A DNA stretch of 64,000 bases, taken from assembly GCA_965242685.1 (NCBI GenBank), contig OZ251487.1, forward strand, positions 93,591 to 157,590. Direction: 5' to 3'. Source of the stretch: Gammaproteobacteria bacterium. Lineage in GTDB: Bacteria; Pseudomonadota; Gammaproteobacteria; UBA4575. The position numbers were made by a program, and so were the translations under genes. The stretch's first letter is position 1; the number at the start of each line of letters is the position of its first letter. The notes under the pieces were generated by a model. That model saw only the letters and a program-made list of their open reading frames with translations, was not told where the DNA came from and searched no databases. Positions 3,065 through 36,475 of the stretch are shown in pieces.

Positions 3065-3532
3065 TTATGCAGCAAGGTGTTCGGGATTCTGGCAGAGGAG
3101 TTGATAAAGGTGCTTGGGTTCCTGGCACCTTTTGATGGATTGACGCATGGAGCGGTTATCCAAGAGTTGCGTCAGTTCGGCCAGCGATTGAAGTTGTTCG
3201 CCGCTTCCCTCCTCGGGTACGGCCATGCAGAACAGAAACGTAACCGGTAACTCATCTGCGGCTTCAAATTCGATACCTTCCTCAAGCCTGAGTATCGACA
3301 CGTAAATCTTTTCGAGATCCGCCAGTCTGCAATGAGGAATGGCGATCCCCTTTCCGATGGCCGTGCCGCCCAGTTTCTCGCGTGCCAGAAGCGCGTCCAG
3401 AAAGGTATTTCTGGTCACGTGCGGGTGTTGCCGTGCCAGGTATTCGCTCAGGATTTCAAGTGCCTTTTTTTTGCTGCTCACCGAGTGACTGAAAACGATC
3501 CCTTCTTCAGTGATGTAGTCTTTAAGACGCAT
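3065..3532 (-). CDS. ptsN: nitrogen-related PTS EIIA (EIIA-Ntr)
   Basis: 155 aa fructose/mannitol-type EIIA fold (GIAIPHCRL). Position rpoN-hpf-ptsN is conserved. Confidence 0.8.
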   Translation of the reverse strand: MRLKDYITEEGIVFSHSVSSKKKALEILSEYLARQHPHVTRNTFLDALLAREKLGGTAIGKGIAIPHCRLADLEKIYVSILRLEEGIEFEAADELPVTFLFCMAVPEEGSGEQLQSLAELTQLLDNRSMRQSIKRCQEPKHLYQLLCQNPEHLAA

Positions 3533-7846: not shown

Positions 7847-8800
7847 TTATACGGTTTGCCGATAAATGAAAAATAGGTAGGCAAAGTACGCTACAAAAAA
7901 TAAAGCCCCGAGGCCACGGGAGATACTTTTCGTTCGTGAAAAGGCCAGCGCGAACAGAAATAATGCCAGCGTTGCCGTGATCATAATGGGGAGGTCGCGT
8001 GTATAGACTTGTGCGGGGATCAGGTATGCCGCGATCACCCCCGCCGTACCGGTGACCCCGAGGGTGTTGAAGATATTTGAACCGATCACGTTTCCCAAGG
8101 CCAGCTCACCGTGTTTCTTCATGGCACTTGCAACGCACGTGGCCAGTTCCGGCAGGCTGGTGCCCAAGGCAACGATCGTCAAACCGATGATCAGGTCCTC
8201 GACGCCCAGATAGTTTGCCATCGAAACCGCCGACCATACCACCAGCTTGGAACTGAGCAATAAAACACCCAGACTGAACGACAAGCCCAACAACAGGACG
8301 GCAAGGCCTTTGTGCGCAGAATCGTCTGGTGCATGTTGTTCTCGTCCGCGCCCTTTCAATTCAAAGTGCGTCAGCAAGTACAGTGTAAATCCCAAGGCCA
8401 GTATCAGCATAACGCCGTCCGCCCGCTGCAAATTCCGGTCCAATATCAACAGGATGAATAATGTCGTCGCCGTGATCAGTAACAGAAAGTCCCTGTATAA
8501 AATATTTTTGCTTACATAGAGTGGCGTAATGCACAAGGTGGTACCCAGGATAAGCAAAATATTGGTGATGTTTGACCCCAGGGCGTTACCTATGGCCAGT
8601 CCCGGGTTCCCCTGCCAGGCGGACAATCCGGAAACCAGCAGCTCCGGGGCCGATGTGCCAAACCCGAGTATAACGAATCCGACCACGATCTTTGAAAGAC
8701 GCAAGTGCCGCCCCAGATGCAGGGCATGATCGGTAAACCTGTCGGCACTCCAAATCAAGAGCAAAAGCCCCGCGACAAAGGCAGAGGAAAATAAATACAT
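7847..8800 (-). CDS. yrbG: Na+/Ca2+ exchanger (CaCA) family inner-membrane protein, YrbG-like
   Basis: Two alpha-repeats (GNALGSNITNILLILG and GNVIGSNIFNTLGVTG). Start moved to the internal Met MYLFSSAFVAGLLLLIWSADRF (ATG at 8798-8800), which aligns with the YrbG N-terminus. The longer ORF-track start would overlap the subtilase gene. Confidence 0.65.
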   Translation of the reverse strand: MYLFSSAFVAGLLLLIWSADRFTDHALHLGRHLRLSKIVVGFVILGFGTSAPELLVSGLSAWQGNPGLAIGNALGSNITNILLILGTTLCITPLYVSKNILYRDFLLLITATTLFILLILDRNLQRADGVMLILALGFTLYLLTHFELKGRGREQHAPDDSAHKGLAVLLLGLSFSLGVLLLSSKLVVWSAVSMANYLGVEDLIIGLTIVALGTSLPELATCVASAMKKHGELALGNVIGSNIFNTLGVTGTAGVIAAYLIPAQVYTRDLPIMITATLALFLFALAFSRTKSISRGLGALFFVAYFAYLFFIYRQTV

Positions 8801-8994
8801 AAGTGAAATGCTTGGTTTATGCTTTGCTTGGTGTTCTACAGCCAATAGAATACACTTTAATACACTTTCCCCCGCAAACGTAAAGAAAAAAGCCAAATGC
8901 GGGCCACCTGCCAAATGCGGGTCACCTGCTAAATACAATGTTATGTGATCGATTCGGGGTAGTATTATCTCCGGTGATGTATAGAGGTACTTCA

Positions 8995-11235
8995 ATGAAA
9001 ACTCTGGCTATGGGAATGGTGGTGTTCACCGCCACAATATTGTTCAGTTGTGGCGGCGGGGGCGGCGGCGGGGGCGACGGGCCAAACCCTTGTACCGGCA
9101 TCAGGGTCTTCGACGGCTGCCTCTCGCGGCAGGAGTTTGCGGGACGCCAAGCCCCCATCGCCCGTGCGCGCCTTGCAGGCTCCGAGTTTCAGGCGCAATG
9201 GGGCCTGGAGACGATCAACGCACACCGGGCACATGCGGCCCTGGAAGCGAAATATGGCAGGCGGGTAAGGCCTGGGACAGGGGTTACCGTCGGCTTCCTG
9301 GATGATGGTATTGATCGTAATCACCCTGAATTCAGCGGCGTAGCGATCACCGAAACGATCATACAATCGGGAGGCAGTCGCTCACATGGTACTTCGGTTG
9401 CCAGCGTTATTGCCGCACAATCCAACGGCCGGGGCTTTGTCGGTGTCGCACCGGGGGCCGCCATCGAGATGGGGGCGATCAGCTTCGGGATTGCCCCCAC
9501 GTATTATACGCCGATTTCACTGACAAACCTTGCCGCCGCCGATGCAGGCTTTGAAAGAAACTTAAAGACTATGTTTGCTCGTGACGTTGATATTTTGAAT
9601 CTCAGCATTGGGTACTCGGGAATCATAGAGAATTATAGTGAGGGAGACCTTCGCACGTATTTTCCAAAAACGATTGCCGCCCAAGCACAGGCCGGTGCCG
9701 GAGAAAAACGCATCCTGGTCTGGGCTGCCGGTAATCATAATAATGCACTTTGCACGTCGGGCACACCTAATTGCAGCAGCGGCGGGTATATCACTGCAAG
9801 CTCGCCCTCTATAACCGCCGGGTTGGCCGCAAGAATTAGCGAATTGGCTTCGCACTCCATCGCCGTCGTAGCCTTAAATCAAGCCGGCACGATTGCCGGT
9901 TTCTCCAACCGTTGCGGGATTGCACAGAATATCTGCATTGCGGCCCCTGGCGTTGATATTGTGGCTGCCGAGGCCGGAAGTACCGGGTCTAGAACAGTAA
10001 ATGGCACGTCTTTTTCTGCCCCGATGGTAGCGGGCGGCCTAGCCTTGATGAAGCACTTTTTCCGTGGCCAACTCTCAAACACGGAACTGGTTACCCGGCT
10101 TTACGCAACCGCCAACAAAACCGGTATATACAGTAACCGAAGCATCTACGGGCAAGGGCTGATGGATCTCGGCGCCGCCGTCTCTCCCGTGGGCGGTACC
10201 TCGATCACCACGGGCACTCGAGTCGGGGACGCCGGCCACTTCACCCAAATTACCCACTTAACAACGGGGAGCGCCTTCGGCGACGGCCTGTCACGCGCCT
10301 TGGCCGACCGCGAAATTGTGGCGTTTGACTCGTTGGGAAGCCCGTTCTGGTTTGACCTCCCCGCCTTTACCCAAAATCGCACCCCTTCACTGATGAAGCG
10401 GCTCGATGACCTGATGACCCGTAATGAAGACCCGCAACCATGGGCTACACACGAGATACCGCCGGCAGCCGGGATCTATGGCGATCCCCGCAATCGGGGC
10501 ACATACAGGATCAGTCTTTACGAACGTCCGGTCGCGGCCGAAAGCAGCGCATTCAACCTTGCCGAGCAGGTTGTAGCATTTACCTCCAAGGTGCCAAGCG
10601 GCTTTGAAACTATGGTATTCACCACCGCCGGCCTCACTGGCAACAACAACCCCAAGACGGGCGCCATAGCGGCTTGGAGACCCTCGAACGTGCCGTTCGG
10701 AATTCGCCTCGGTTGGCTTGGAGAACGAGAGGCAGTACTGGATTCCATGGCTGACGGGGCATTCGGTCGGTTATCGGGCGACAGCTTCGTGACCGGCCTT
10801 GAAATGAATACCGAATTCAAGGGCTGGCGGCTGGCCGTCGACGCCGAGGTCGGCCTGGTCACATCGGATACATCAGGGGGCGTCATCGCCGACCTGTCGG
10901 ACATGGTGACCAGCGCGTTTTCACTGCGCGCCCATCGGCACTTGACGAGCAGGGACAGGCTCACGTTCTCGCTATCGCAACCGCTGCGGATAGAACGCGG
11001 CTCTGCCGAGCTTGTGTTGCCGGTCGGTCGCACCAAAGACGGCAAAGTACTGCATGAACAGGTCTCTGCACGCCTGACGCCATCCAGCAGACAGATCGAT
11101 CTATCCGTGCGTTGGCAACGGATGAAACTATTCAACGGCAGACTTCGCGCCGAGATCACCGCCTCGCGCAATCCGGGGCACATGGACAAGGGCACCGAGT
11201 TCAGCCTGCTGGCGGGTTGGGAAGCTGCCTTCTAA
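8995..11235 (+). CDS. S8 (subtilisin-like) serine protease lipoprotein with C-terminal autotransporter beta-barrel (NalP-like)
   Basis: Lipobox LFSC followed by a Gly8 linker. Catalytic motifs DDGID, HGTSVAS, GTSFSAPMVAG and AAGNHN. The C-terminal ~300 aa are beta-strand-rich and end in an aromatic residue (...LLAGWEAAF). Start taken at the ATG at 8995 (MKTLAMGMVVF). Confidence 0.8.
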   Translation: MKTLAMGMVVFTATILFSCGGGGGGGGDGPNPCTGIRVFDGCLSRQEFAGRQAPIARARLAGSEFQAQWGLETINAHRAHAALEAKYGRRVRPGTGVTVGFLDDGIDRNHPEFSGVAITETIIQSGGSRSHGTSVASVIAAQSNGRGFVGVAPGAAIEMGAISFGIAPTYYTPISLTNLAAADAGFERNLKTMFARDVDILNLSIGYSGIIENYSEGDLRTYFPKTIAAQAQAGAGEKRILVWAAGNHNNALCTSGTPNCSSGGYITASSPSITAGLAARISELASHSIAVVALNQAGTIAGFSNRCGIAQNICIAAPGVDIVAAEAGSTGSRTVNGTSFSAPMVAGGLALMKHFFRGQLSNTELVTRLYATANKTGIYSNRSIYGQGLMDLGAAVSPVGGTSITTGTRVGDAGHFTQITHLTTGSAFGDGLSRALADREIVAFDSLGSPFWFDLPAFTQNRTPSLMKRLDDLMTRNEDPQPWATHEIPPAAGIYGDPRNRGTYRISLYERPVAAESSAFNLAEQVVAFTSKVPSGFETMVFTTAGLTGNNNPKTGAIAAWRPSNVPFGIRLGWLGEREAVLDSMADGAFGRLSGDSFVTGLEMNTEFKGWRLAVDAEVGLVTSDTSGGVIADLSDMVTSAFSLRAHRHLTSRDRLTFSLSQPLRIERGSAELVLPVGRTKDGKVLHEQVSARLTPSSRQIDLSVRWQRMKLFNGRLRAEITASRNPGHMDKGTEFSLLAGWEAAF

Positions 11236-11449
11236 GATCATTCCGATATCCCTTAAGTAAGACACCGAAGATACAAAATGCCGATCAAACCCATATTCCT
11301 TGTTGGCATTTTTATGCTATTTCGTCTACCTGAAAGCAGATCCTCTAGTCCATTCTGGCATTTCAATGCTATTTCGTTTACCATGAAAAAGTGACGGTAC
11401 ACGTACACGACAAAAAACAGGCATAGAGGGGAAATAGGCAGAGGGAACA

Positions 11450-11845
11450 ATGGGCATTACAGAATTGATAGATAAATATGGCGAGGCGGGCGTAGTGTTT
11501 GGCTTTGTGCTGACTTGGATTATTTTCAGTTTCCAAATTAGAGGTATGAAAGGCCGAATTGATGGTATAGAAACCAACATCAATACCCGAATTGATGGTA
11601 TAGAAACCAATATCAATACCCGAATTGATGGTATGGAAACCAATATCAATACAAAGATGGAAGCCATCAACAAAAGCATTGAGAAACACGACACAGAGCA
11701 ACGGGAATTACGTGGTTTAGTGGTGGGCGTAATCCAAAGTATAGGCGACATCAAACAAAGCATAGGCGGGCTTGAAAAAATGATGGCAAGCCAACAACCC
11801 CAGACCGACAGCACACCGGCCGCCGCCACAGCACAGGGCAAATAA
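11450..11845 (+). CDS. small membrane-anchored coiled-coil protein with three 11-aa (33-bp) tandem repeats RIDGIETNINT
   Basis: 131 aa with an N-terminal TM helix (VVFGFVLTWIIFSF). The hendecad repeats are encoded at 11555-11653. Strand is chosen on plausibility; the antisense ORF 11326..11841 looks like a repeat artefact. Confidence 0.4.
   Translation: MGITELIDKYGEAGVVFGFVLTWIIFSFQIRGMKGRIDGIETNINTRIDGIETNINTRIDGMETNINTKMEAINKSIEKHDTEQRELRGLVVGVIQSIGDIKQSIGGLEKMMASQQPQTDSTPAAATAQGK
11555..11653 (+). repeat. 3 x 33-bp tandem repeat (cgaattgatggtatagaaaccaaYatcaataccc)
   Basis: Direct inspection; in-frame within the small CDS. Confidence 0.8.
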
Positions 11846-12101
11846 GTTCCGTTTCTCCCTTCTAATCCGTCCGGATAAATCAGAGCAATACTGAAAACCT
11901 TCGCCGCGGACCGGCCTCGCCCGAGCAGAATCGCGGATTGGTTTTTAGGCGTTCAATATCTGGCAAATTTCGGAGACAAATTTACCCTTTTAGAAATATA
12001 TCCTTCCCGCGAAACAGGGTTCTACCACCCGCAACGGCGGTTGATTTCCAGATCAGGGTAGAACGCGGGTCTGGTTTTTAGGCGTTCAATAGCTAGTGAT
12101 T
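11846..12101. repeat. module-flanking intergenic repeat block (family copy A)
   Basis: Contains tgatttccagatcagggtagaacgcgggtctggtttttaggcgttcaat units and the ggagacaaatttacccttttagaaatatatccttcccgcgaaacagggttctaccacccgcaacgg segment. Both recur at 16138-16497 and 19649-20031. Confidence 0.7.
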
Positions 12102-15100
12102 TCACCACCTGATCACGGCCTGTACGCCGATGCCGTGTTCGGTATCCTCGTCATCGTATTCGAGGCGTTCGCCTTCCAGTTTTAAGGTCAAGGCTTCGGT
12201 AAACTTGTACTCGCTCCCCAGTCGGTAGTGACGCCCTTCGTCCCGCACCCGCAGCCCCAGGTACGGCGTCAGCAGCCCCCGCCTGTGATACAACCCGTAC
12301 CCCAATTCGGTCTCCAACTGCAACGCGGTGTCGGCGGCCTCGTCCTCGTCCTTCAACGCCAGTCCCCGCTCCCACAGTGCGCCGATGCCGCCGCCGGTGG
12401 TGCCCCAACTCGGGATGACGCTAAATCGCAGCCCCCGCCCGTTGGCCGCCGGCAACCATTCCAAAGCCCCGCCAAGCCCCCATTCGTCCAAGTCCCCGCT
12501 ATGCGTCACCAGGTAGCGCCCGTGCGTGCGAAGGCGCAGCCCGCCGTTGCTATAACCAACATCCCCGCCGATCTCGACGCCACTGCCGGTCTCGCCGTCG
12601 CCGCCGTCATAGCGTACCCCCAGCTCCAGGCTCGAGGTCAGGATCGCGCCCGTCTCCAGCACCTGACGACGGCTGCCCTCGGCGGCCAGCCGCAGTCGGT
12701 GGGTGTCGATGGTTATGCCGTCTATACGGTCGCCGTTGTCGTCGATGCGCCACCGCGTGGTCTGTCCCTCGCCCCGAATGGCGATCTTCAGATCATCGCG
12801 TTCATAGACCCGCATACTGCCCCCCGCCGACAAGGTCTTGAGGGTGCTGTCGCTGCGTTGTTTCTCATCGAGATCCTCGTCGTCGATGGTGATCTCGCCC
12901 TCGCCGTAGCCCACCGTCGCCCACATCCGGCTGCCGTCTTCGCCGCTCCAGCCAAGGTACGGATGAATGCTCACCATCTCGCTCTCGTGATCGCCCTTGA
13001 TCGTCTCGCCTTCGCTACTATCTTTATAGTCGATGTCGCTCTCAAACCAGGATACGCTCACGCCGGCGGTCTTGTTTGTGCCCCATTCGGTATCGATCCC
13101 CAAGTGCCACGAGAAGGCATCGCCGTCCCAATCCAGCCAGCCGGTGTCTAACGCCAGATCGCGCCAGTCGCCCGCCCCCCACAAGGTCAGGTTGTTGCCG
13201 AAGGTATCGGCGCCGTTCAACGGCAGCGCAAAGTTTTGTCCGCTCAACGCCTGGCGCCATTTGAAGGTGCCGTCTTCCAATGATTGGGCGTTGCCTTGGA
13301 TTACATTCCCGAACGAGGAGGTCGGCGCCCGCGAACCGCCCCCCGCTCCTTCCAGTCGTTCGCGGATCGCCCGACCCACGCTGTCGGTCAACGCCCGCGC
13401 CAGCTCCGGTACGATCGATTCGTTGATGCGCCGCAGACGCGCCCGTTCCTTGTCCCGCGAGTTCTCGACGGTGATCGCAAACGTCATCATCGCCGTGCCG
13501 CCCACCACTTCCCAGGTGTAGTCGGTCGCCACTTGTTCTTCCGTCGGCGTGCCGCTGATGGTGCGCGTGCCCGCATTCAAACTCAGCCCCACCGGCAAGG
13601 CCGGGCTTAGGGTGTAGTCGACATCGCCGTCCACCAACTCCGGCAGGATCAACGCCGTGATCGGGGTGTTGACGGTATACACTTGATCGGGTATATCGAC
13701 ATAGCCCACCCCAAAGGCTGAAAACACACTCACGGTCGCGCATATCAAGTCGCTCCCGCCCGGATTGGTGCGCAAGGTCGTACCGCTCACGGCCTCCCAT
13801 TCGCCGCGCCCTTCGTCGTAGTGCAACAGCAACAGGGGACGCCCGGTCGCCGCCGTCTCCAGCTCGGCGCTATACGGCAGACAGATCTCTAGCCCGCCAC
13901 TCGGCACGGGGGCGACATCGATGTCGACCACGGTGCCATCGCCCAAGGTGTAGGTGCTGCCGGTCAACGGCACATTCGATGACACCCGACTCAGGGTGAT
14001 CGCCAAATCCTGGCCCAAGGCGGCCGGCGGCGCCACTTCCACCTCTTCGTCCACGCCCTCGGATACCGTCACGGTGACCGCCTGGCCGTTGATCTCGTAG
14101 TTGGTGGTGCCCGCTCTGTGCATGGCGATGCGCCGGTCGGCGCTGCCGCCTTGTACGGTGATGACCACGGCATCCGCCTGCGTGTCTTCGTAGCCGCTGC
14201 CGGTGCCGCTTACGGTGTGACCGATGGTCACGCCCCCCTTGGCGTAGTCGTCGTTGTCGGTCGCCACCGTCGCCGTCACCGTCACCGCGCCGTTCCAGTT
14301 GCCCGTCCCGAACGTGACGCTGCTTACATCGGGGGTGACGGCGGCATCGCCGCTCGTCAGGGTCAGCGTGACATTGGCCGCCGGCTCGGCGTCCAGCACC
14401 ACCGTATAGGTGCCGCTGCCCCCTTCGGCGATGGTCAGTTCGGTCGGCGTCACGGTCACGCCCTTGGTGTCGTCATCGACGGTGCGCACCGCCACGTCTC
14501 GTTGACTCAGCGCGGTGTAGACGCTGTCGCTGCCGGTCGGACTCGCCAACCGCACCGCATAGTCTTGATCGCCATCGTCCACAAAGTCGTCGACGCCGGT
14601 CAGCGTCACCGTCTGCGTACTGTTCCAGTTACTGGCCGTAAACGTCAGACTGGCCGGACTCACCGTCCCCTCGCTGGTGTCGGTGCTGCTCAACGCGATC
14701 ACCACGTTGGCGGTCGGCTCGCTGTCCAGCTCGACATCGAAGGTCGCGGTGCGGCTTGCGCCCGTCGCCTCGGTCACCGTCTCGCGCGGCGTACCCGCGC
14801 CCAAGTCGCTCAGCGTAATGCCGGCCGTGTCATCGTCGGTGGTGGTGACCCCCACGTCAACGTTGGCCAGACCGTTGTAGTTGGCGTCCGCGGTGCTCGC
14901 CGGATCAAGGGTGATGTCGTAGTTCTGATCGCCATCGTCAATGCTATCGTTCGCCCCGGTCACCGTCACCGTCTGATCGCTGTTCCAGTTAGAGGGCGTG
15001 AACGTCATACTGCTCGGACTGACCGTACCTTCGCCAGTGTCGGTGCTGCTGACCGCCACCGTTACGTTGGCCGTCGGCTGGGTGTTGAGTTTGACGGTGA

Positions 15101-15722
15101 ACGTCGAGGTGACCCCCGCCTCGGTCGCCTGGCCGGTGACCGCGCCGACGCCGAGGGTAGGCGACTCGTCGTCCAGGATCGTCAGCGTGGCGGTCGTGAC
15201 GGCGGTATGACCTTTTTCCCAATAAAAAGATGTATCACCTGCATCGTCACCAGGAAACTCCGCCGACACCGTCACCGTCCGGGTGCCGTCCACGTTTCCG
15301 TTGTCGGGAATCATGAGCGTCACCACCCCGTTCTCGGGCCGCGTAAGAGTGATTGTACCGGCGTTAGGTCTGTTATACCTCAGCCGCACATTGGTGCTCA
15401 GCGAGGCGCCGCCGGCGTTGGTGGGAGTCGATACGACAATATCAAAATATGCAAGGGCATTTAGGTGCGATGCTTTCGGATTGTATTGGCAATTGTGAAT
15501 CGTCCCGGTGCAAAGGATGTTAACGGGGACGGTCGCCGCCTGGCCCTCGGTGACGGTAAGCGAACTGGCGCGTTCCGCGCCCAACTCTATCCTGAAACTA
15601 TGGTGCTGGCCGGAGCCGGCATGCGCCCCCGCCGTACCCGCCGTCAGCAGTAGCGGTGCGGCCACAGAAACGCCGGCCAAAAGTCGGCGTACAAGGCGAT
15701 TGCGGAAAAGGCCAAGCACCAT
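12102..15722 (-). CDS. giant surface protein: signal peptide, tandem ~100-aa beta-sandwich (Calx-beta/cadherin-like) repeats, C-terminal autotransporter-type beta-barrel
   Basis: 1206 aa. Signal peptide LLAGVSVAAPLLLTAGTAGAHA. Repeated TANVTV..SSTDT.EGTVSP.S.TFT.SNWN..QTVTVTG.DD..DDGDQ.Y units. C-terminus ...GIGVQAVIRW. Paralogous to 16498..19164 and 20032..22353. Confidence 0.8.
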   Translation of the reverse strand: MVLGLFRNRLVRRLLAGVSVAAPLLLTAGTAGAHAGSGQHHSFRIELGAERASSLTVTEGQAATVPVNILCTGTIHNCQYNPKASHLNALAYFDIVVSTPTNAGGASLSTNVRLRYNRPNAGTITLTRPENGVVTLMIPDNGNVDGTRTVTVSAEFPGDDAGDTSFYWEKGHTAVTTATLTILDDESPTLGVGAVTGQATEAGVTSTFTVKLNTQPTANVTVAVSSTDTGEGTVSPSSMTFTPSNWNSDQTVTVTGANDSIDDGDQNYDITLDPASTADANYNGLANVDVGVTTTDDDTAGITLSDLGAGTPRETVTEATGASRTATFDVELDSEPTANVVIALSSTDTSEGTVSPASLTFTASNWNSTQTVTLTGVDDFVDDGDQDYAVRLASPTGSDSVYTALSQRDVAVRTVDDDTKGVTVTPTELTIAEGGSGTYTVVLDAEPAANVTLTLTSGDAAVTPDVSSVTFGTGNWNGAVTVTATVATDNDDYAKGGVTIGHTVSGTGSGYEDTQADAVVITVQGGSADRRIAMHRAGTTNYEINGQAVTVTVSEGVDEEVEVAPPAALGQDLAITLSRVSSNVPLTGSTYTLGDGTVVDIDVAPVPSGGLEICLPYSAELETAATGRPLLLLHYDEGRGEWEAVSGTTLRTNPGGSDLICATVSVFSAFGVGYVDIPDQVYTVNTPITALILPELVDGDVDYTLSPALPVGLSLNAGTRTISGTPTEEQVATDYTWEVVGGTAMMTFAITVENSRDKERARLRRINESIVPELARALTDSVGRAIRERLEGAGGGSRAPTSSFGNVIQGNAQSLEDGTFKWRQALSGQNFALPLNGADTFGNNLTLWGAGDWRDLALDTGWLDWDGDAFSWHLGIDTEWGTNKTAGVSVSWFESDIDYKDSSEGETIKGDHESEMVSIHPYLGWSGEDGSRMWATVGYGEGEITIDDEDLDEKQRSDSTLKTLSAGGSMRVYERDDLKIAIRGEGQTTRWRIDDNGDRIDGITIDTHRLRLAAEGSRRQVLETGAILTSSLELGVRYDGGDGETGSGVEIGGDVGYSNGGLRLRTHGRYLVTHSGDLDEWGLGGALEWLPAANGRGLRFSVIPSWGTTGGGIGALWERGLALKDEDEAADTALQLETELGYGLYHRRGLLTPYLGLRVRDEGRHYRLGSEYKFTEALTLKLEGERLEYDDEDTEHGIGVQAVIRW

Positions 15723-15741
15723 TGTACCTATGGTAAATCGC

Positions 15742-15755
15742 GGGGGGGGGGGGGG
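15742..15755. repeat. homopolymeric G14 tract (C14 on the coding strand), 19 nt upstream of the giant-protein start
   Basis: Counted directly. Conserved flanks aaatcgc-Gn-atattg are shared with the tracts at 19230 and 22419. Confidence 0.9.
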
Positions 15756-15780
15756 ATATTGGCATGATCATCCTAACTTT

Positions 15781-16137
15781 TCAGAAAAACAGGAGTTTGC
15801 CCACTATTAGCAGGGTAAGGCCCAAGTTCAACCCGATTGCCCATTGAAGCCAGGTCTGACCGATTTGGAGTTTGTCAATATCTGCCTTAAGCTCTTGTTT
15901 CAGTGCTTTATTATCTGCCTTAAGCTCTTGTCTCAGTGCTTTATTATCCGCCTTAAGCTCTTGTCTCAGTGCTTTATTATCCGCCTTAAGCTCTTGTCTC
16001 AGTGCTTCAAGATCTGTCTTGGTGGCTACTTCCGCGTCGGGGTGTTTGAACGTATCCACAATCACCCGCGCCTGCGCCTCCGGCATGTCGGCGGCGGTCA
16101 ATTTCCTGATGGCCTCGGCGGTGTCTATTGCATACAT
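15781..16137 (-). CDS. DUF1640-like tail-anchored coiled-coil protein (paralog A; 4 copies of the 33-bp repeat)
   Basis: 118 aa. Conserved N-domain MYAIDTAEAIRKLTAADMPEAQARVIVDTFKHPDAEVATKTD, then LRQELKADNKA hendecad repeats and a C-terminal TM helix (WAIGLNLGLTLLIVGKLLFF). Family assignment is from memory. Confidence 0.55.
   Translation of the reverse strand: MYAIDTAEAIRKLTAADMPEAQARVIVDTFKHPDAEVATKTDLEALRQELKADNKALRQELKADNKALRQELKADNKALKQELKADIDKLQIGQTWLQWAIGLNLGLTLLIVGKLLFF
15883..16014. repeat. 4 x 33-bp tandem repeat (gccttaagctcttgtYtcagtgctttattatcY)
   Basis: Direct inspection; encodes KALRQELKADN on the minus strand. Confidence 0.85.
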
Positions 16138-16497
16138 GGCTTTATCCTAAACGCCCACATCATAGCGAAGTTCAAGCGTCATTGGAATAAGCCACTATAT
16201 CCTAGATTATTCCCAAAGATAAATAGAGTGCCTAGTTGATCTCGACAGGGCGGTTTCTAGGCTTTCAATATCTGGTGATTTTCGATTTTCGGCGGTTAAA
16301 AATACCGCCTACAAGGGAGATAAAATCACCCTTTTAGGAATATATCCTTCCCGGAAATAGGGTTCTACCACCCGCAACGGCTGGTGGTTTTTTGATCAGA
16401 GTAGAATTGTAGATTGGTTATCTAGGCGTGCTATATACTGTTGATTCCAGATCAGAAGGCCGTAGATCGGTTTTTAGGCGTTCGATGGCGGGTGATT
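16138..16497. repeat. module-flanking intergenic repeat block (family copy B), including a hairpin + T6 terminator-like element
   Basis: accacc-N10-ggtggt followed by tttttt, and ccagatcag...gatcggtttttagg units. Homologous to blocks A and C. Confidence 0.65.
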
Positions 16498-19164
16498 TCA
16501 CCACCTATACTCGACGGTTACGCCGATGCCGTGTTCGGTGTCGGCACGGTCTTGCTCCAGACGTTCGCATTCGGTGTTCAGCGTCAGGGTTTCACGTAAC
16601 TTGAAACGTCCGCCCAACCGATAGTGACGCCCTTCGTCCCGCACGCTCATCCCCAAGTACGGCGTCAGCAGTCCGCCGATATGATGCCGTCCGTAGCCGA
16701 TCTCGCCGTCCAGCTTTAGACTGCTGTCCGGGTCTTCTTCGTCTTCCTCGTATAATGCCGCCCCCGCCTTCCACAACCGCTGTAGACCGCTCTCGGCGGT
16801 CCCCCAGGTCGGCGTCAGGGTGATGTGTAGACCTCGCCCATCGGTCATCGCCCTGTATACCAGCGATACGTTCGCGCCCCATTCATCGTAATCCGAATTC
16901 GCCACCAGCGTCCGCGCGCCCGCCGTCAGACCCAACCGGCCCGACCCGTAGTCTACGCCCACGCCCACTTCCGCACCACTGCCGGTGTCGCCATCGCCGC
17001 CGTCATAACGCACGCCCAGTTCAAATCTTGGCAATAACCGCGCGCCCGATGCCAGGATTTTCTCCTGCCTTGCCTCTACCGCCACCCGCAAGCGTGTTGC
17101 GTCCGACTTCTGTCGTTGAATGCCATCGCCGTTGTCGTCCACTTCGAAATCCGCATACATCGCCTCGCCCCGCAGCGAGACCTCGGTGCCATTGGCCGCG
17201 TACAACGGCCCCCGCGCCCCGGCCGAGGCCATTCGCATGTCGGCGTCCGACTTCTGACGCTGCCCGCCGGCGACGATCTCTAAATCGCCACTGCCAACGC
17301 CCGCCATCGCCCATAGGCTGATGCCGCCCGGCGTGATCCATCCCAAATAGGGTTGCGCACTGGTCATCTCCAGCTCCCACTTGCCCTTTTGACCCTGGTG
17401 TCCGTAATCTAATTTCGCCTCCGACCAGGTGGCCGCCAGCCCCACACGCAGACCGTTTGCCAGCAATCGATCCGCCCCCAGGTGGGCGCTGGTCACGTCG
17501 CCGTCCCACTTCACGCCGCGCGCCTCGCCATCGAGATCGCGGTAGTCGCCGCCGCCCCACAAGACGATGTCGCCACCGCCGCCCGCGTCATTCCCGTCCA
17601 GCGACAAGGCAAACGCCGCCTGCGGCAGCAGGTGTCGTTTCCAGTCTAATTCCCCGTCTTCCTGCATAGCCGACCCGTGTCGCATCAGCCGTTCCAAGTT
17701 TACGTTTTCCGTCAGCGAGGGTGATGGTGATGTCGGTGCCCCGCCCAAATCCGCCCGCTCGAGACGTTGACGCACCGCCGTCGCGCGGCTGTCCGCCATC
17801 GCCCGCGCCACTTCCGGCAGCAGTACTTCCGTCACCTCATCCCCCGCGCCGTCGTTGTCGGTGTTGGTTACCAACACCGTCACATCCGCCAGCGCGGCAT
17901 AGCGGGCATCGGAACTGCTCGGGTCCAGTCGCACCGCACAGGTCGCGCCGACATCGCTCACCATGTCGTCCACGCCCCGCACCGTCACGGTCTGCGGGGT
18001 GTTCCATAACCTTACCTGTGCGTCCGGGTCTTCGTCTGCGGCACTGAGCACGAACGTCAACGTCCCGCTCTCGCCGGCGGCAATGTAGGTCATGCCGCCG
18101 TCCACCGACACTTCGCACTCGTCGCCGTCTTGGCTTGAAACATCCACCGCCGAATCCACCTGCGGGATGGTCGACAGCCGCACCGTGAACGTGTCCGTGC
18201 CGCCATCCTCCGTGACTACGGTCGAACCGCCGCTCTCAACCACCGTCAGCCCCACTTCGTCGTCTTCGGTCATCACCTCGACGGTCTCCGTCGCCAGAGT
18301 GTTGTAATTGGTATCGCCGCTACTGCTCGGATCCAGCTCGATGTTGTAGCTCTGCGTGCCGTCTTGAATGGTGTCGTCGACGCCGGTCACGGTGACCGTC
18401 TGGGTGCTGTTCCAGTTGCTGTTCGTGAACGTCAGACTGGTCGGACTCGGCGTGCCCTCGCCGGGGTCGGCACTGCTCACCGCCACCGTTACGTTGGCGG
18501 TCGGCTGCGACGCCAGCCTGACGGTGAAGGTCGCCGTCTGCGCGGTGTTGCCTTCATTTGCCGTGCCGGTCACGGCACTCGTCCTGATCCCCGGCGTGTC
18601 TTCGTCCAGAATCGTCAGTGTGGCGGACTGGATAAAGACTTCTGGTACGTCGGAAATCTCCACAAAGTAATTCTGATCCGTACCATAAGTCCTAGGCGCC
18701 CCCGCTATGTTCACCGTCCGGTCTCCGTCCATAGCCGTATTGCCGGCAATCGTGAGCGTTACCGTCCCCGAAGTGTTCGAGCCTAAGGTATTCGAGCCTG
18801 CATTTATGGTAAACCCTAAGTGCTGACCCGTCTGCGTGATGCCGCCGGCGCCGCTGGGAGTCGGAGTCCCTGCGGTGATGGTAATACCGTTTCTGTTGTT
18901 TCGATTCTGGTCGGGATATCCATTCTGTTGGCAAGAAGCAGTTCCACCACCATGTGAGGTGCAGCGGACGGTGACGGCGACGGTCGCCGCCTGGCCCTCC
19001 GTGACGGTCAACGTGCTTGCCCCGTTCAACAACACCTCGAAGTGCAAATGACGGTTCGTCCCTATGTTATGCGCCCCCGCCGTACCCGCCGCAAGCAACA
19101 GCGACACAGATAGCAACGCCGCCGAAAGGCGGTGTGCAAGGCTATGGCGAAGTCCACGCATCAT
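16498..19164 (-). CDS. giant surface protein, paralog 2 (signal peptide, beta-sandwich repeats, C-terminal beta-barrel)
   Basis: The ORF-track start at 19305 reads through the poly-G tract (PPPPP). Start moved to MMRGLRHSLAHRLSAALLSVSLLLAAGTAGA (ATG at 19162-19164), matching paralog 3. C-terminus ...GIGVTVEYRW. Confidence 0.8.
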   Translation of the reverse strand: MMRGLRHSLAHRLSAALLSVSLLLAAGTAGAHNIGTNRHLHFEVLLNGASTLTVTEGQAATVAVTVRCTSHGGGTASCQQNGYPDQNRNNRNGITITAGTPTPSGAGGITQTGQHLGFTINAGSNTLGSNTSGTVTLTIAGNTAMDGDRTVNIAGAPRTYGTDQNYFVEISDVPEVFIQSATLTILDEDTPGIRTSAVTGTANEGNTAQTATFTVRLASQPTANVTVAVSSADPGEGTPSPTSLTFTNSNWNSTQTVTVTGVDDTIQDGTQSYNIELDPSSSGDTNYNTLATETVEVMTEDDEVGLTVVESGGSTVVTEDGGTDTFTVRLSTIPQVDSAVDVSSQDGDECEVSVDGGMTYIAAGESGTLTFVLSAADEDPDAQVRLWNTPQTVTVRGVDDMVSDVGATCAVRLDPSSSDARYAALADVTVLVTNTDNDGAGDEVTEVLLPEVARAMADSRATAVRQRLERADLGGAPTSPSPSLTENVNLERLMRHGSAMQEDGELDWKRHLLPQAAFALSLDGNDAGGGGDIVLWGGGDYRDLDGEARGVKWDGDVTSAHLGADRLLANGLRVGLAATWSEAKLDYGHQGQKGKWELEMTSAQPYLGWITPGGISLWAMAGVGSGDLEIVAGGQRQKSDADMRMASAGARGPLYAANGTEVSLRGEAMYADFEVDDNGDGIQRQKSDATRLRVAVEARQEKILASGARLLPRFELGVRYDGGDGDTGSGAEVGVGVDYGSGRLGLTAGARTLVANSDYDEWGANVSLVYRAMTDGRGLHITLTPTWGTAESGLQRLWKAGAALYEEDEEDPDSSLKLDGEIGYGRHHIGGLLTPYLGMSVRDEGRHYRLGGRFKLRETLTLNTECERLEQDRADTEHGIGVTVEYRW

Positions 19165-19229
19165 TAGTAATTTGCGGTGGCCGCCGAACCTCCTACGGTC
19201 TGCGCGGGATGTGGTAATTACAAATCGCG

Positions 19230-19244
19230 GGGGGGGGGGGGGGG
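19230..19244. repeat. homopolymeric G15 tract, 65 nt upstream of the paralog-2 start codon
   Basis: Counted directly; same conserved flanks as tract 1. Confidence 0.9.
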
Positions 19245-19333
19245 CAATATGTCGTTTCATCGGAGGCTGCTCCACGTGAGTTTGTCCTGTAATTCCCGCG
19301 TACAATAATACGTATAGTTATATCGGCGTTCAA

Positions 19334-19648
19334 TCAAAAAAATACGAGTTTGAGCACGATTAGCAGAGTAAAGCTTAAATTCGCCCCGATTGCCCATTTG
19401 ATCCATTTTAACTCTGTTCTAAACTCTGCTCTAAGCTCTCCAATATCCGCCTTAAACTCTTGTCTCAGTGCTTTATTATCTGCCTTAAGCTCTTGTTTCA
19501 GCCCGTTGATACTTGTCTCAAGATCTGTCTTGGTGGCTACTTCCGCGTCGGGGTGTTTGAACGTATCCACAATCACGCGCGCCTGCGCCTCCGGCATGTC
19601 GGCGGCGGTCAATTTCCTGATGGCCTCGGCGGTGTCTATTGCATACAT
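19334..19648 (-). CDS. DUF1640-like tail-anchored coiled-coil protein (paralog B; about 2 repeat copies)
   Basis: 104 aa; same N-domain and C-terminal TM helix as paralog A. 33-bp repeats at 19449-19514. Confidence 0.55.
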   Translation of the reverse strand: MYAIDTAEAIRKLTAADMPEAQARVIVDTFKHPDAEVATKTDLETSINGLKQELKADNKALRQEFKADIGELRAEFRTELKWIKWAIGANLSFTLLIVLKLVFF

Positions 19649-20031
19649 AACTTTATCCTAAACGCCCAACATTCTAGCGAAGTTCGGGCGTCATTGGAAT
19701 AAGCCACTATATCCTAGCTATTCCCAAAGATAAATAGAGTGTCTAGTTGATCTCGACAGGTCAGTTTTTAGGCTTTCAATGGCTGTTGATTTCCAGATTA
19801 GAGTAAAACCGCGGATCGGTTTTTAGGCGTTTAATATCTGGTAATTTTCGGAGACAAAATCCCCCTTTTAGAAATATATCCTTCCCGCGAAACAGGGTTC
19901 TACCACCCGCAACGGCTGGTGATTTCCAGATCAGGGTAGAACGCGGGTCTGGTTTTTAGGCGTTCGATGGCTGCTAATTTCAGATCAGAAGGCCGTAGAT
20001 CGGTTATCTAGGCGTGCTATATCTGTTGATT
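19649..20031. repeat. module-flanking intergenic repeat block (family copy C)
   Basis: Two tgatttccagatYagRgtaRaaccgcggRtcKgtttttaggcgttYaat units plus the conserved ggagacaaaatcccccttttagaaatat... segment. Confidence 0.7.
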
Positions 20032-22353
20032 TCACCACCTGTATTCAACCGTTACGCCGATGCCGTGTTCGGTGTCGGCACGGTCTTGCTCCAGGCGTTC
20101 GCATTCGGTGTTCAGCGTCAGGGTTTCACGTAACTTGAAACGTCCGCCCAACCGATAGTGTCGCCCTTCGTCCCGCACGCTCATCCCCAAATACGGCGTC
20201 AGTAGTCCGCCGACATGATGCCGTCCGTAGCCGATCTCGCCATCCAGCTTTAGACTGCTGTCCGGGTCTTCTTCGTCTTCCTCGTATAAGGCGGTCCCCG
20301 CCTTCCACAACCGTTGCAGGCCGCTCTCGGCGGTCCCCCAGGTCGGCGTCAGGGTGATGTGCAGACCCCGTCCGTCGGTCATCGCCCGATAGACCAGCGA
20401 TACGTTGGCGCCCCATTCATCGTAATCGGAATTCGCCACCAGCGTCCGCGCACCCGCCGTCAGACCCAATCGGCCCGACCCGTAGTCTACGCCCACGCCT
20501 ACTTCCGCACCGCTACCGGTCTCGCCATCGCCGCCGTCATAACGCATGCCCAACTCAAATCTCGGTAATAACCGCGCCCCCGATGCCAGGATTTTCTCCT
20601 GCCTTGCCTCTACCGCCACCCGCAAGCGCGTGGCGTCCGATTTCTGTCGTTGAATGCTATCGCCGTTGTCGTCCACTTCGAAATCCGCATACATCGCCTC
20701 GCCGCGTAGCGATACTTCTGTTCCATTGGCCGCATACAACGGCCCGCGCGCACCGGCCGAGGCCATCCGCATGTCGGCGTCCGATTTCTGACGCTGCCCG
20801 CCGGTGACCACCTCTAGATCGCCGCTACCGACGCCCGCCATCGCCCATAGGGAAATACCGCCCGGCGAGGTCCATCCCAAATAGGGTTGCGCACTGGTCA
20901 TCTCCAGCTCCCACTTGCCCTTTTGACCTTGGTGTCCGTAGTCGAGTTTGGCCTCCGACCACGTCGCCGCCAGGCCTACGCGCAGACCGTTTGGCAACAG
21001 CCGATCCGCCCCCAGGTGGGCGCTGGTCACGTCGCCGTCCCACTTCACGCCGCGCGCCTCGCCATCGAGATCGCGGTAGTCGCCGCCGCCCCATAAGACG
21101 ATGTCGCTACCCATGCCCTCGTCATCGTCCAGCGACAGCGCAAACGCCGCCTGCGGCAGCAGGTGTCGTTTCCAGTCTAATTCCTCGTCCTCTTGCATAG
21201 CCGACCCGTGTCGCATCAGCCGTTCCAAGTTTAAGTTTTCCGTCAGCGAGGGTGATGGTGATGTCGGTGCCCCGCCCAAATCCGCCCGCTCGAGACGTTG
21301 ACGCACCGCCGTCGCGCGGCTGTCCGCCATCGCCCGCGCCACTTCCGGCAGCAGTACTTCCGTCACTTCTCCCGTGCCGTCGTTGTCCGTGTTGGTGACC
21401 AACACTGTGGTGCGCGCTATCGCCATCGCGTATTGGGCATCGGAACTGCTCGGGTCCAGTCGCACCGCACAGGTCGCGCCGACATCGCTCACCATGTCGT
21501 CCACGCCCCGCACCGTCACGGTCTGCGGGGTGTTCCACAAACTCGTCTGTGCGCTGAGCAGGTCGCTCGGGTCGGAGCCATCGGGCAGGAACGTCAACGG
21601 CCCGCCAACACCGGCGGCGAGATACGTCATGCCGCCATCCAGCGACACTTCGCACTCGTCGCCGTCTTGGCTTGAAACATCCACCGCCACCGCCGCCTGC
21701 GGGTTGGTCGGCAGCCGCACCGTGAACGTGTCCGTGCCGCCATCCTCCGTGACTACGGTCGAACCGCCGCTCTCGGTTACCGTCAGCCGCGTGTCATCGT
21801 CCAGGATCGTCAACGTGGCGGACGCTACGATCGGTGCGATGTCATATCTACTTTGGAACCAAGATCCGTATGCCTGGCCCGGCAGCTGCGTCGCGTAATA
21901 CCCCTCCGCGTTCACCGTCACGGTCCGACGTCCGTCCATAGCCGGATTGCCGTCAATCGTGAGCGTTGCCCCGGTATTGGTCGTGCCGAGGTTTATATTG
22001 GTGGTAGGTAGGGTATTATACCGCGCCTGCGGATTGGCGTTCAGCGTGACGCCGCCGCCACTGGCGGGGGCCGTGGCACTGACGGTGAAGTAGGCGCTGT
22101 TGCGCCGAGGCAGCTCGGAGAAACCGGTGATACTGGTGCAGTGGGCCGTGCAACGGACTCTGGCGGTGACGGTCGCCGCCTGGTCCTCCGTGACGGTCAA
22201 CGTGCTCGCCCCGTTCAACTCCACCTGAAAGTGCGCATGGATGGTACTACCCCTACCATCCGCCCCCGCCGTACCCGCCGCAAGCAGTAGCGACACAAAC
22301 AGCAACGCCGCCGAAAGGCGGTGTGCAAGGCTATGGCGAAGTCCACGCATCAT
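20032..22353 (-). CDS. giant surface protein, paralog 3 (signal peptide, beta-sandwich repeats, C-terminal beta-barrel)
   Basis: 773 aa. The C-terminal ~450 aa are nearly identical to paralog 2 (same ...LLPEVARAMADSRATAVRQRLERADLGGAPTSPSPSLTEN... through GIGVTVEYRW). Confidence 0.8.
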   Translation of the reverse strand: MMRGLRHSLAHRLSAALLFVSLLLAAGTAGADGRGSTIHAHFQVELNGASTLTVTEDQAATVTARVRCTAHCTSITGFSELPRRNSAYFTVSATAPASGGGVTLNANPQARYNTLPTTNINLGTTNTGATLTIDGNPAMDGRRTVTVNAEGYYATQLPGQAYGSWFQSRYDIAPIVASATLTILDDDTRLTVTESGGSTVVTEDGGTDTFTVRLPTNPQAAVAVDVSSQDGDECEVSLDGGMTYLAAGVGGPLTFLPDGSDPSDLLSAQTSLWNTPQTVTVRGVDDMVSDVGATCAVRLDPSSSDAQYAMAIARTTVLVTNTDNDGTGEVTEVLLPEVARAMADSRATAVRQRLERADLGGAPTSPSPSLTENLNLERLMRHGSAMQEDEELDWKRHLLPQAAFALSLDDDEGMGSDIVLWGGGDYRDLDGEARGVKWDGDVTSAHLGADRLLPNGLRVGLAATWSEAKLDYGHQGQKGKWELEMTSAQPYLGWTSPGGISLWAMAGVGSGDLEVVTGGQRQKSDADMRMASAGARGPLYAANGTEVSLRGEAMYADFEVDDNGDSIQRQKSDATRLRVAVEARQEKILASGARLLPRFELGMRYDGGDGETGSGAEVGVGVDYGSGRLGLTAGARTLVANSDYDEWGANVSLVYRAMTDGRGLHITLTPTWGTAESGLQRLWKAGTALYEEDEEDPDSSLKLDGEIGYGRHHVGGLLTPYLGMSVRDEGRHYRLGGRFKLRETLTLNTECERLEQDRADTEHGIGVTVEYRW

Positions 22354-22418
22354 TAGTAATTTGCGGTGGCCGCCGAACCTCCTACGGTCTGCGCGGGATG
22401 TGGTAATTACAAAATCGC

Positions 22419-22435
22419 GGGGGGGGGGGGGGGGG
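22419..22435. repeat. homopolymeric G17 tract, 65 nt upstream of the paralog-3 start codon
   Basis: Counted directly; same flanks (aaaatcgc-G17-caatatgtcg). Confidence 0.9.
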
Positions 22436-22527
22436 CAATATGTCGTTTCATCGGCGGCTGCTCCACGTGAGTTTGTCCTGTAATTCTCGCATACAATAAT
22501 ACACTAGTTATAATATCAGCGGTTCAA

Positions 22528-22797
22528 TCAAAAAAATACGAGTTTGAGCACGATTAGCAGAGTAAAGCTTAAATTCGCCCCGATTGCCCATTTGATCCAT
22601 TTTAACTCTGTTCTAAACTCTGCTCTAAGCTCTCCAATATCCGCCTTAAACTCTTGTCTCAGCCCTTCAATATCTGTCTTGGTGGCTACTTCCGCGTCGG
22701 GATGTTTGATCGTATCCACGATTACGCGCGCCTGCGCCTCCGGCATGTCGGCGGCGGTTAGCTTCCTGATGGTGTCGGCGGTGTCTATTGCATACAT
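22528..22797 (-). CDS. DUF1640-like tail-anchored coiled-coil protein (paralog C; about 1 repeat copy)
   Basis: 89 aa, MYAIDTADTIRKL...; C-terminal TM helix. Confidence 0.5.
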   Translation of the reverse strand: MYAIDTADTIRKLTAADMPEAQARVIVDTIKHPDAEVATKTDIEGLRQEFKADIGELRAEFRTELKWIKWAIGANLSFTLLIVLKLVFF

Positions 22798-22798
22798 G

Positions 22799-23200
22799 TT
22801 AGAAAAACAGGAGTTTGCCCACTATTAGCAGGGTAAGGCCCAAGTTCAACCCGATTGCCCATTGAAGCCAGGTCTGACCGATTTGGAGTTTGTCAATATC
22901 TGCCTTAAGCTCTTGTCTCAGTGCTTTATTATCTGCCTTAAGCTCTTGTCTCAGCGCTTTATTATCCGCCTTAAGCTCTTGTCTCAGCTCTTTGATATCT
23001 GCCTTAAGCTCTTGTCTCAGTGCTTTATTATCCGCCTTAAGCTCTTGTTTCAGTCCGTTGATACTTGTCTCAATATCTGTCTTGGTGGCTACTTCCGCGT
23101 CGGGGTGTTTGAACGTATCCACAATCACCCGCGCCTGCGCCTCCGGCATATCGGCGGCGGTCAATTTCCTGATGGCTTCGGCGGTGTCTATTGCATACAT
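22799..23200 (-). CDS. DUF1640-like tail-anchored coiled-coil protein (paralog D; about 5 repeat copies)
   Basis: 133 aa. 33-bp repeats at 22902-23066 encode five ELKAD units. Confidence 0.55.
   Translation of the reverse strand: MYAIDTAEAIRKLTAADMPEAQARVIVDTFKHPDAEVATKTDIETSINGLKQELKADNKALRQELKADIKELRQELKADNKALRQELKADNKALRQELKADIDKLQIGQTWLQWAIGLNLGLTLLIVGKLLFF
22902..23066. repeat. about 5 x 33-bp tandem repeat
   Basis: Direct inspection. Confidence 0.85.
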
Positions 23201-23524
23201 GACTTTACCCTAAACTCCCTCATTGTAGCGAAGTTCAAGCGTCATTGGAATAAGTCGAGGTGGCCGCCGGCGATAAAACACGTAATCTGCTAATTTCCAA
23301 CACGGCATTTCCATTTATTTTGCCTGTCAATATCATATAGGACGGGGTTTGTGGAGTTAAAGATTCACGTACAGGCGAAGGTTATATCGCAGGCAACGTC
23401 TTGAGTAAAAATGGTACAATTTGCTTGCACCCGTTCTTGTTTGGAAAATATAGGTACGTATTATTCGTTTAAGCATTTCGTTCGCGTGCGATGTCTTGAA
23501 ACTTTTTGGCAACGAGGGCCAGTC

Positions 23525-24198: not shown

Positions 24199-25554
<1,356 letters not shown>

Positions 25555-36421: not shown

Positions 36422-36475
36422 TTTCAGCCGCGACCTGGCGGTGAAGATCTCCTCGAATGAATACCTGGAGATAAA

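Follow-up and report, generated by a model that had tools for sequence, protein, structure and literature searches.

We analyzed a stretch of 64,000 nucleotides of contig OZ251487.1 (positions 93,591 to 157,590 of the forward strand; GenBank assembly GCA_965242685.1), hereafter the window, which comes from an uncultured gammaproteobacterium. Our subject is the interval 8801-23524, which is bounded by the core genes yrbG and mlaC and contains one S8 peptidase gene, three genes for barrel-anchored proteins, and five small open reading frames (ORFs) for coiled-coil/transmembrane (TM) proteins of 131, 118, 104, 89, and 133 aa. Within this interval, an array of ~12 kb (11299..23254) extends from the point at which a contig of a closer relative, L085, departs from the window (left edge) to the end of the repeated module sequence (right edge), as delimited by blastn, junction sequences, and repeat mapping. 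We think that the array is probably a contingency locus built by recombination and equipped with poly-C switches, in a lineage-specific region that formed in two steps.

The array is made of three modules on the minus strand, each comprising a gene for a tail-anchored coiled-coil protein similar to the DUF1640 family, a poly-C tract, and an autotransporter gene. Read along that strand, module 3 starts with two tandem DUF1640-like genes, d133 (22799-23200) and d89 (22528-22797), followed by a tract of 17 C (22419..22435; G17 on the plus strand) and by the gene of autotransporter paralog 3, AT773 (773 aa; 20032..22353). Module 2 consists of the DUF1640-like gene d104 (19334..19648), a tract of 16 C (19229..19244; G16 on the plus strand), and paralog 2, AT935 (16498..19260), whose length is 889 aa from the ATG at 19164, ~920 aa from an upstream ATG at 19260, and 935 aa from the mechanical TTG start of the ORF. 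Module 1 has d118 (15781..16137), a tract of 14 C (15742..15755; G14 on the plus strand), and paralog 1, AT1206 (1206 aa; 12102..15722), followed by the convergent plus-strand ORF of 131 aa (11450..11845). At the scale of the modules, these are direct repeats with a spacing of 3.5 kb. TRF identified 33-bp tandem repeats at 11554-11652 (3.0 copies), 15879-16007 (3.9 copies), and 22897-23054 (4.8 copies), each inside a small ORF. Repeats of 53 nt and ~156 nt follow each autotransporter gene and, within the window, are found only in the island. The inter-module spacer at 19649..20031 (minus strand), for instance, includes both units and has repeats in common with 16138-16497 and 11846-12101. A preliminary description of this DNA had listed poly-G tracts, 33-bp repeats, intergenic repeats of ~50 bp, and a module spacing of ~3.5 kb, all of which are real. 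The glycine run of the protease is encoded by GGC and GGG codons and is no homopolymer.

The three tracts are the sole homopolymers of 9 bases or more in the window, and none of this kind was found in the ~0.5 Mb of sequence of 26 related yrbG loci (see below). By our own estimate, the chance expectation for a run of at least 14 is roughly 1e-3 per window. The tracts lie 19-65 nt upstream of the annotated autotransporter starts (19 nt in the case of AT1206) and 10-16 nt downstream of an ATG, i.e., in the 5' coding region or promoter, where the repeat tracts of contingency loci are located. The upstream ATG is preceded by a Shine-Dalgarno-like motif, AGGA in module 1 and GGAG in modules 2 and 3, and one tract-length class in three opens a stop-free frame from it into the signal peptide and the autotransporter ORF. 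For AT1206, the ATG at 15765, 10 nt before the tract, joins the ORF at C13 or C16 and is out of frame at the assembled C14. The upstream ATG of AT935 (19260) is in frame at the assembled C16, and that of AT773 (22451) is in frame at C15 or C18 and out of frame at the assembled C17. The predicted N-termini from these upstream starts are MKRHIAPPPPPR... or MPISPPPPR.... Modules 2 and 3, whose leaders are 96-97% identical, have tracts of 16 and 17 nt, respectively, a difference that is seen in a comparison of paralogs only. A further paralog located elsewhere in the genome, P0084, has been called from a MKRHIAPPPPP start that leads directly into the signal peptide. In a contig from another metagenome (L088), an ORF of the autotransporter family starts 2 nt after a tandem pair of DUF1640-like genes; it has no tract and carries a long N-terminal extension before the signal peptide. 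This arrangement would fit an ancestral start near the stop codon of the small gene.

Slipped-strand mispairing at each of these 14-17-nt tracts would switch each autotransporter on and off independently of the others. The likeliest route is translational: the length of the tract would decide whether the upstream start codon shares a frame with the signal peptide and the ORF. As assembled, paralog 2 would be ON and paralogs 1 and 3 would be OFF. The tracts might instead act on transcription, as a promoter spacer or in the 5' untranslated region (UTR), with their length tuning or switching expression without any frame shift. Tract length modulates transcription in Bordetella fim and in Neisseria porA and opc, and modules 2 and 3 contain a succession TTGCCC...(tract)...GCGATTTGTAAT that is readable as a -35 element, a spacer, and a -10 element. 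In a genome of 73% GC, where autotransporter homologs are scattered singly, a G11-12 tract precedes the called start of each by 25-70 nt; an AT-rich TCTAAAA comes after the tract, and a stop codon lies in the path from the tract to the start. In P0084, moreover, the leader peptide is not conserved. However, no -35-like hexamer precedes the tract of module 1, where the sole good -10 element (TACAAT) overlaps the annotated ATG. A tract of 16 or 17 C would also give a putative promoter spacer of 19-20 nt, which is poor, and every tract-bearing copy in the source genome keeps an ATG and a Shine-Dalgarno-like motif just upstream. We regard an action on transcription as possible, but as the less likely of the two routes.

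Homopolymers of this type also occur in sequences of other organisms that carry homologs of island genes. Runs of 10-17 G or C were observed at 1306-1318, 3264-3275, and 5724-5735 of L003, at 16568-16577 of L001, and at 5911-5927 and 8475-8484 of L086. In two other small genomes, they directly precede unannotated genes of 529-576 aa and a restriction-modification-like gene, which suggests that many genes of both organisms bear such tracts.

The comparison of the modules revealed a mosaic pattern of identity. Between modules 3 and 2, the small gene and the leader are 93-97% identical and the final ~1.5 kb, which encode the C-terminal part, are 91-99% identical, whereas the N-terminal passenger is 47-70% identical and has indels that add up to ~330 bp. 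Modules 2 and 3 are the product of a recent tandem duplication of ~3.5 kb, and d104 looks like a chimera of the 5' part of d133 and the 3' part of d89. Module 1 is different. Its flanks match those of module 3 at 86-94% identity (86% between d118 and d133, 94% for the downstream 156-nt spacer unit), and yet its autotransporter shares only 42-43% identity with AT935 and AT773 over the C-terminal 450 aa. The N-terminal domain of AT1206 shares 66% identity with its counterpart in P0084, which is encoded on the same contig of 1,831,068 bp and has an AT773-type beta-domain. Module 1 is a divergent cassette set between conserved flanks and not a simple duplicate. The source genome encodes at least six autotransporter paralogs and at least seven DUF1640-like paralogs. 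Given that AT1206 is so divergent, that its flanks are conserved, and that its N-terminus resembles P0084, cassette exchange among at least six paralogs was part of the history of the array. The growth by tandem duplication of a ~3.5-kb module that had been proposed earlier holds for modules 2 and 3 and fails for module 1. Altogether, the pattern argues for recombination and gene conversion among the members of a dispersed family, together with a recent tandem duplication, and it has no mobile-element signature. Recombination between the conserved ends of the modules (the DUF1640-like gene and the leader upstream, the beta-domain and the spacer repeats downstream) would shuffle and diversify the exposed N-terminal passengers, and the in-frame 33-bp repeats would lengthen or shorten the stalks of the small coiled-coil proteins.

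To place the island in a phylogenetic context, we scanned genomes, one for each species, with YrbG as the query, which yielded 80 loci, and mapped all the proteins of the window by tblastn onto the 26 closest ones (55-75% amino acid identity in YrbG). These are mostly from uncultured Gammaproteobacteria or from metagenome-assembled genomes labeled 'Thiotrichales', several with chromosomes of ~1.7-2.1 Mb. The genes flanking the island were named using curated Pfam and NCBIfam profile models. On the left, the minus strand carries ptsN, hpf, rpoN, lptB, lptA, lptC, kdsC, and yrbG. The latter (7847..8800) encodes a protein of the Ca/Na antiporter family (TIGR00367, 222 bits for a cut-off of 180) and is separated on its stop side by 23 bp from kdsC, with no kdsD between them. 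On the right, there is a mlaC homolog on the plus strand (23525..24172; Pfam MlaC, 146 bits), followed by murA and hisG. This gene order fits the murA-mla/yrbG-kds-lpt-rpoN neighborhood of the maps of E. coli and Pseudomonas; it is a gammaproteobacterial arrangement rather than one universally conserved among Gram-negative bacteria, as had been stated. All 26 related loci have hisG, murA, mlaC, either nothing or mlaFED, and then yrbG, kdsC, lptC, lptA, lptB, rpoN, hpf, and ptsN. In 12 of them, including the closest relative (L004), mlaC and yrbG are divergent neighbors separated by 0.5-0.8 kb, and in the other 14 a mlaF-like ATPase gene and ~1.5 kb (mlaFED) lie between the two. The MlaC orthologs are 50-68% identical in all 26 relatives. 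None of the 26 loci has island genes at the yrbG-mlaC position, and tblastn revealed no remnants of autotransporter or DUF1640-like genes in these spacers. Hence, the interval is an insertion into a conserved locus, as the preliminary description had proposed. The ~270 bp at 23255-23524 resemble the sequence upstream of mlaC in L004 and are the native upstream region of this gene.

The absence of kdsD and mlaFED had been reported along with the island. Both are indeed missing at this locus, but kdsD is absent between yrbG and kdsC in all 26 relatives and mlaFED in 12, the closest among them. Both absences are lineage traits that are older than the island and unrelated to it. The idea that the island caused their loss was rejected, as island-free relatives lack them too.

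Two short-read contigs from closer relatives, L084 and L085, were reached via homologs of the S8 protein and were compared with the window by blastn together with L004. L084 (~80% DNA identity) has lptB-lptA-lptC-kdsC-yrbG, then the S8 gene, then mlaC-murA-hisG, and has no array: relative to it, the window has an additional 11242-23520. L085 (92.6% identical) has yrbG and the S8 gene, tracks the window for 65 bp beyond the S8 stop codon, and departs from it at 11299. The contig stops 17 nt after this point, and these 17 nt match nowhere in the window. Since both contigs have the S8 gene at this site and lack, or differ in, the rest, the S8 gene forms the older layer of the island and the array at 11299-23254 a younger one, specific to this genome among everything searched. 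The single island of the preliminary description is correct in that the interval was inserted, but it has two layers. Scans of JGI metagenomes with the poly-C leader sequence and with the d133 protein gave no matches. The sequence of events would have started with the entry of the S8 lipoprotein protease gene into the yrbG-mlaC spacer of a gammaproteobacterial genome of ~1.83 Mb, and the three modules would then have been produced by homologous recombination between paralogs scattered over the genome and, after it, by tandem duplication. One could also imagine that the island genes are ancestral at this site and were repeatedly lost in the relatives. The lineage does lose genes here, as illustrated by mlaFED, although this is no direct support. 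Such a scenario would require loss in all 26 relatives and a further partial loss in L084, and the 91-99% identity between modules 2 and 3 points to a recent duplication. We consider it very improbable.

Another possibility is that the whole 14.7 kb were acquired horizontally as an island brought by a mobile element, which later lost its mobility genes. The GC content at third codon positions (GC3) is 0.74-0.80 in the autotransporter genes and 0.57-0.69 in core genes, and the closest homologs of the autotransporters outside the source genome are in the 73%-GC genome. These two observations make an older horizontal origin of the autotransporter family possible. The small ORFs have a GC3 of 0.46-0.56, and the protease gene, at 0.63, is core-like. 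Yet, we found none of the hallmarks of mobile genomic islands (integrase or transposase, tRNA or tmRNA target, flanking direct repeats). There is no integrase, transposase, or insertion sequence (IS) in the window, where all ORFs of at least 85 aa are accounted for by other genes, in line with the preliminary description. There is no tRNA in the 64 kb either, where Rfam gave only the RNase P RNA (43.6 kb), and the junction sequences and repeat mapping revealed no direct repeats common to both island junctions. The layered build, with the S8 gene alone in L084, also speaks against a single acquisition, as do the core-like composition of this gene and the existence of its paralogs in the closest relatives. 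Finally, the leader and beta-domain of the autotransporters are also found in paralogs of the same genome, so that intragenomic recombination suffices. The acquisition of the entire interval from a mobile element is therefore unlikely.

The S8 gene (8995..11235, plus strand) encodes a lipoprotein serine protease of 746 aa with a C-terminal outer-membrane beta-barrel. The protein has a lipobox (LFSC) followed by the glycine run, and a Peptidase_S8 domain (114 bits) whose catalytic triad (D103, H131, S339) is invariant in 57 homologs. Lipobox and Asp-His-Ser triad are as in proteases of the NalP/SphB1 type. In the structural model (pLDDT 86), the subtilase domain is closest to the passenger of the Ssp autotransporter and is followed by a barrel like the porin-type barrels of 14-16 strands. 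Neither sequence nor profile comparisons link this barrel to autotransporter beta-domains (PF03797, the 12-strand translocator). The protein is thus like NalP and SphB1 in its layout, and the earlier label 'NalP-like' holds for the lipobox, the triad, and the layout, but not for the barrel. The family is broad, with more than 1400 matches, and has paralogs in the closest relatives. The protease may act on the autotransporters; as the family is so large and occurs without the array, the cleavage of neighboring surface proteins would be pure analogy with NalP, a protease that processes other surface proteins in Neisseria meningitidis. Just upstream of the S8 gene, at 8892-8934 of the window, there are 2.4 copies of an 18-bp repeat, partly kept in L084.

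The three autotransporters were previously described as giant barrel-anchored proteins. They are barrel-anchored, but 'giant' overstates their 773-1206 aa. AT935 and AT773 match the Pfam Autotransporter beta-domain (PF03797) with 40.7 and 42.5 bits, respectively, for a cut-off of 26. AT1206 has no direct match; what ties it to the family is the identity of its C-terminal 450 aa to those of AT935 and AT773. Inspection of the translations showed a Sec signal peptide (...LLLAAGTAGA, then H) and a terminal ...RW in all three. AT1206 has a Calx-beta/Ig-like passenger with a He_PIG domain, and a sequence search of the PDB with this protein gave no matches. The AlphaFold2 model of AT773 (pLDDT 72) has two beta-sandwiches, a long helix (327-358), and ~18 strands (403-771). 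Searches with Foldseek matched the passenger to the CBD12 of NCX1/CALX, i.e., pairs of Calx-beta domains, and the barrel to the beta-domains of BrkA and EspP (TMt 0.5-0.6 for these two) and of EstA, as well as to barrels of 22-26 strands. The C-terminal unit of 449 aa (20032-21381 of the window) has 1725 cluster representatives at E<=1e-30, in which it is always C-terminal, and the passengers borne by this type of translocator reach ~7800 aa. The unit thus represents a widespread, uncharacterized, and apparently enlarged class of translocator, and the ~18 modeled strands instead of the canonical 12 could mark an unrecognized subclass of autotransporters. The three proteins presumably function as adhesins.

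The island had been said to hold five small coiled-coil membrane proteins. There are indeed five ORFs, but one of them (11450-11845) lies on the plus strand and has no sequence relationship with the four others. It has an N-terminal TM segment, three 11-residue repeats, and no Pfam or NCBIfam family. The four minus-strand proteins share a head of 45 residues, 0-7 hendecad repeats (encoded by the 33-bp units), and a C-terminal TM segment. They match PF07798 (DUF1640/CCDC90-like) with 23.4-29.2 bits (24.9 for d118), below the cut-off of 33.5. Precomputed matches to this family are on record for several paralogs, and the PDB entry 6h9l was matched weakly (E 0.012). A phage or defense origin of the small ORFs found no support, since PHROGs gave only families of unknown function and PADLOC only coiled-coil noise. 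The adjacency of DUF1640-like and autotransporter genes is conserved, and the small proteins may act on the autotransporters. One could go further and see in them dedicated, co-translated partners of autotransporters with an enlarged translocator (~450 aa, possibly ~18 strands), forming with the poly-C switches a new system of variable surface display in marine host-associated bacteria. The number of hendecads would then act as a molecular ruler, with the small genes also serving as portable recombination linkers for variable islands of surface proteins, restriction-modification systems, and Abi genes. We find it improbable that this is the case.

Several observations weigh against the contingency locus proposed here. 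Homopolymer lengths assembled from long reads are error-prone, so the ON and OFF calls are tentative, and the predicted variation in tract length is drawn from the assembly and from paralogs. Only 6 or 22 codons of open frame separate the tract from the autotransporter start, and modules 2 and 3 do not count as independent cases, such that translation is only weakly favored over the promoter or 5' UTR as the likely target. The leader of P0084 is partly in a different frame from that of paralog 2. A sigma-70-like site upstream of tract 2 is at chance level (8 found, 6.0 expected), and the scans for promoters and terminators also gave counts at chance level. L084 has the S8 gene but no array, and the breadth of the S8 family leaves a functional link to the array unsupported. 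Lastly, DUF1640-like genes are also adjacent to restriction-modification and Abi genes in relatives: in L086 (8546-16462) and L087 (61-3528), they lie around or within a type III-like mod/res pair and beside AbiJ-like and HI1420-antitoxin genes. Hence, they behave as companions that recur at variable regions rather than as strict partners of autotransporters. Even so, that slippage at the tracts switches the autotransporters, most likely through translation, is the explanation that we retain.

Other features were observed around the island and in the relatives. An 18-bp tandem repeat (4.7 copies of CAGAAACGGATCAAGCAG) at 24204-24291 occupies most of the spacer between mlaC and murA, a position taken by mlaB and ibaG in E. 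coli and Pseudomonas. At 34745-38027, two adjacent genes encode Sel1-repeat proteins (558 and 354 aa, with 12 and 7 repeats, respectively, and 108-bp tandem repeats in the DNA) and are followed by a gene for a Macro-domain protein. Eukaryote-like repeat proteins such as Sel1 are typical of host-associated bacteria, and the region is possibly a second insertion of accessory genes. Behind the Macro gene, the spacer contains 2.8 copies of a 54-bp tandem repeat (38103-38253). The class A bacterial RNase P RNA (324.6 bits in Rfam) is at 43621-44048, between rsmI and the dcw cell-division cluster. In the 73%-GC relative, L001, seven small NHase_alpha-like genes, of the nitrile-hydratase leader peptide type, are found in tandem by an autotransporter homolog (13755-18355). 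They are interrupted by an ISL3 transposase and look like an array of precursors of ribosomally synthesized and post-translationally modified peptides (RiPPs).

The island has elements in common with several known systems. It resembles the Pmp proteins of Chlamydia, a host-associated bacterium with a reduced genome, in layout, with no sequence relationship expected: clustered paralogous autotransporters that have poly-G/C tracts at or near the 5' end and, as a prediction in our case, frameshift switching. The passengers of Pmp proteins are made of GGA(I,L,V)/FxxN repeats, whereas those described here are Calx-beta-like beta-sandwiches, a DUF1640-like gene precedes each autotransporter gene, and the organism is an uncultured marine gammaproteobacterium. 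The PmpG paralogs of Chlamydia combine polyG/C tracts with paralog expansion and gene conversion (10.1101/506121). In Neisseria meningitidis, the NalP and MspA autotransporters phase-vary through homopolymeric tracts in the coding sequence (PMC3723659). As with NalP, our locus encodes, next to surface proteins, a lipoprotein subtilase whose C-terminus forms a barrel, but the tracts are on the adhesin-like genes, not on the protease gene, and the barrel of the protease is not detectably an autotransporter beta-domain. The autotransporters have the Sec signal, the C-terminal PF03797 domain, the predicted long linker helix, and the terminal aromatic residue of type Va proteins (BrkA, EspP, EstA). 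They differ from these by a translocator of ~450 aa with ~18 modeled strands instead of 12 and by a beta-sandwich passenger instead of a beta-helix. The small proteins resemble MCUR1 and CCDC90B (PF07798, CCDC90-like, formerly DUF1640), with their short N-terminal head, coiled coil, and single C-terminal TM segment, but the matches are below threshold, the number of 11-residue repeats varies (0-7), and the genes lie in bacterial surface or defense islands instead of taking part in the assembly of the mitochondrial calcium uniporter. Overall, the locus would be of the same kind as the systems of Chlamydia and Neisseria, in the new setting of an uncultured lineage with small genomes, and with three new twists: the DUF1640-like leader genes, the Calx-beta passengers on an enlarged translocator, and the two-layer build in the yrbG-mlaC spacer.

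Contingency loci driven by simple sequence repeats are typical of pathogens adapted to their hosts, among them Neisseria, Haemophilus, Campylobacter, and Chlamydia. Among the top-ranked results of a full-text literature search, no paper tied phase variation to sponge symbionts. One relative, SB0662_bin_53 (L013), belongs to the SB06xx series of bins, which has been treated as sponge-associated (PMC7883664). The island provides a concrete testable case: three adhesin-like genes, predicted to be independently switchable, together with a recombination-prone family of paralogs and with other tract-bearing genes in relatives, in an uncultured lineage with a genome of ~1.8 Mb that has at least one relative from a sponge metagenome. 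Because the tracts are expected to be hypermutable, existing long-read data can be mined for heterogeneity in their length. If the switching is real, such symbionts would vary their surface stochastically, possibly under pressure from host phagocytes, phages, or competing strains.

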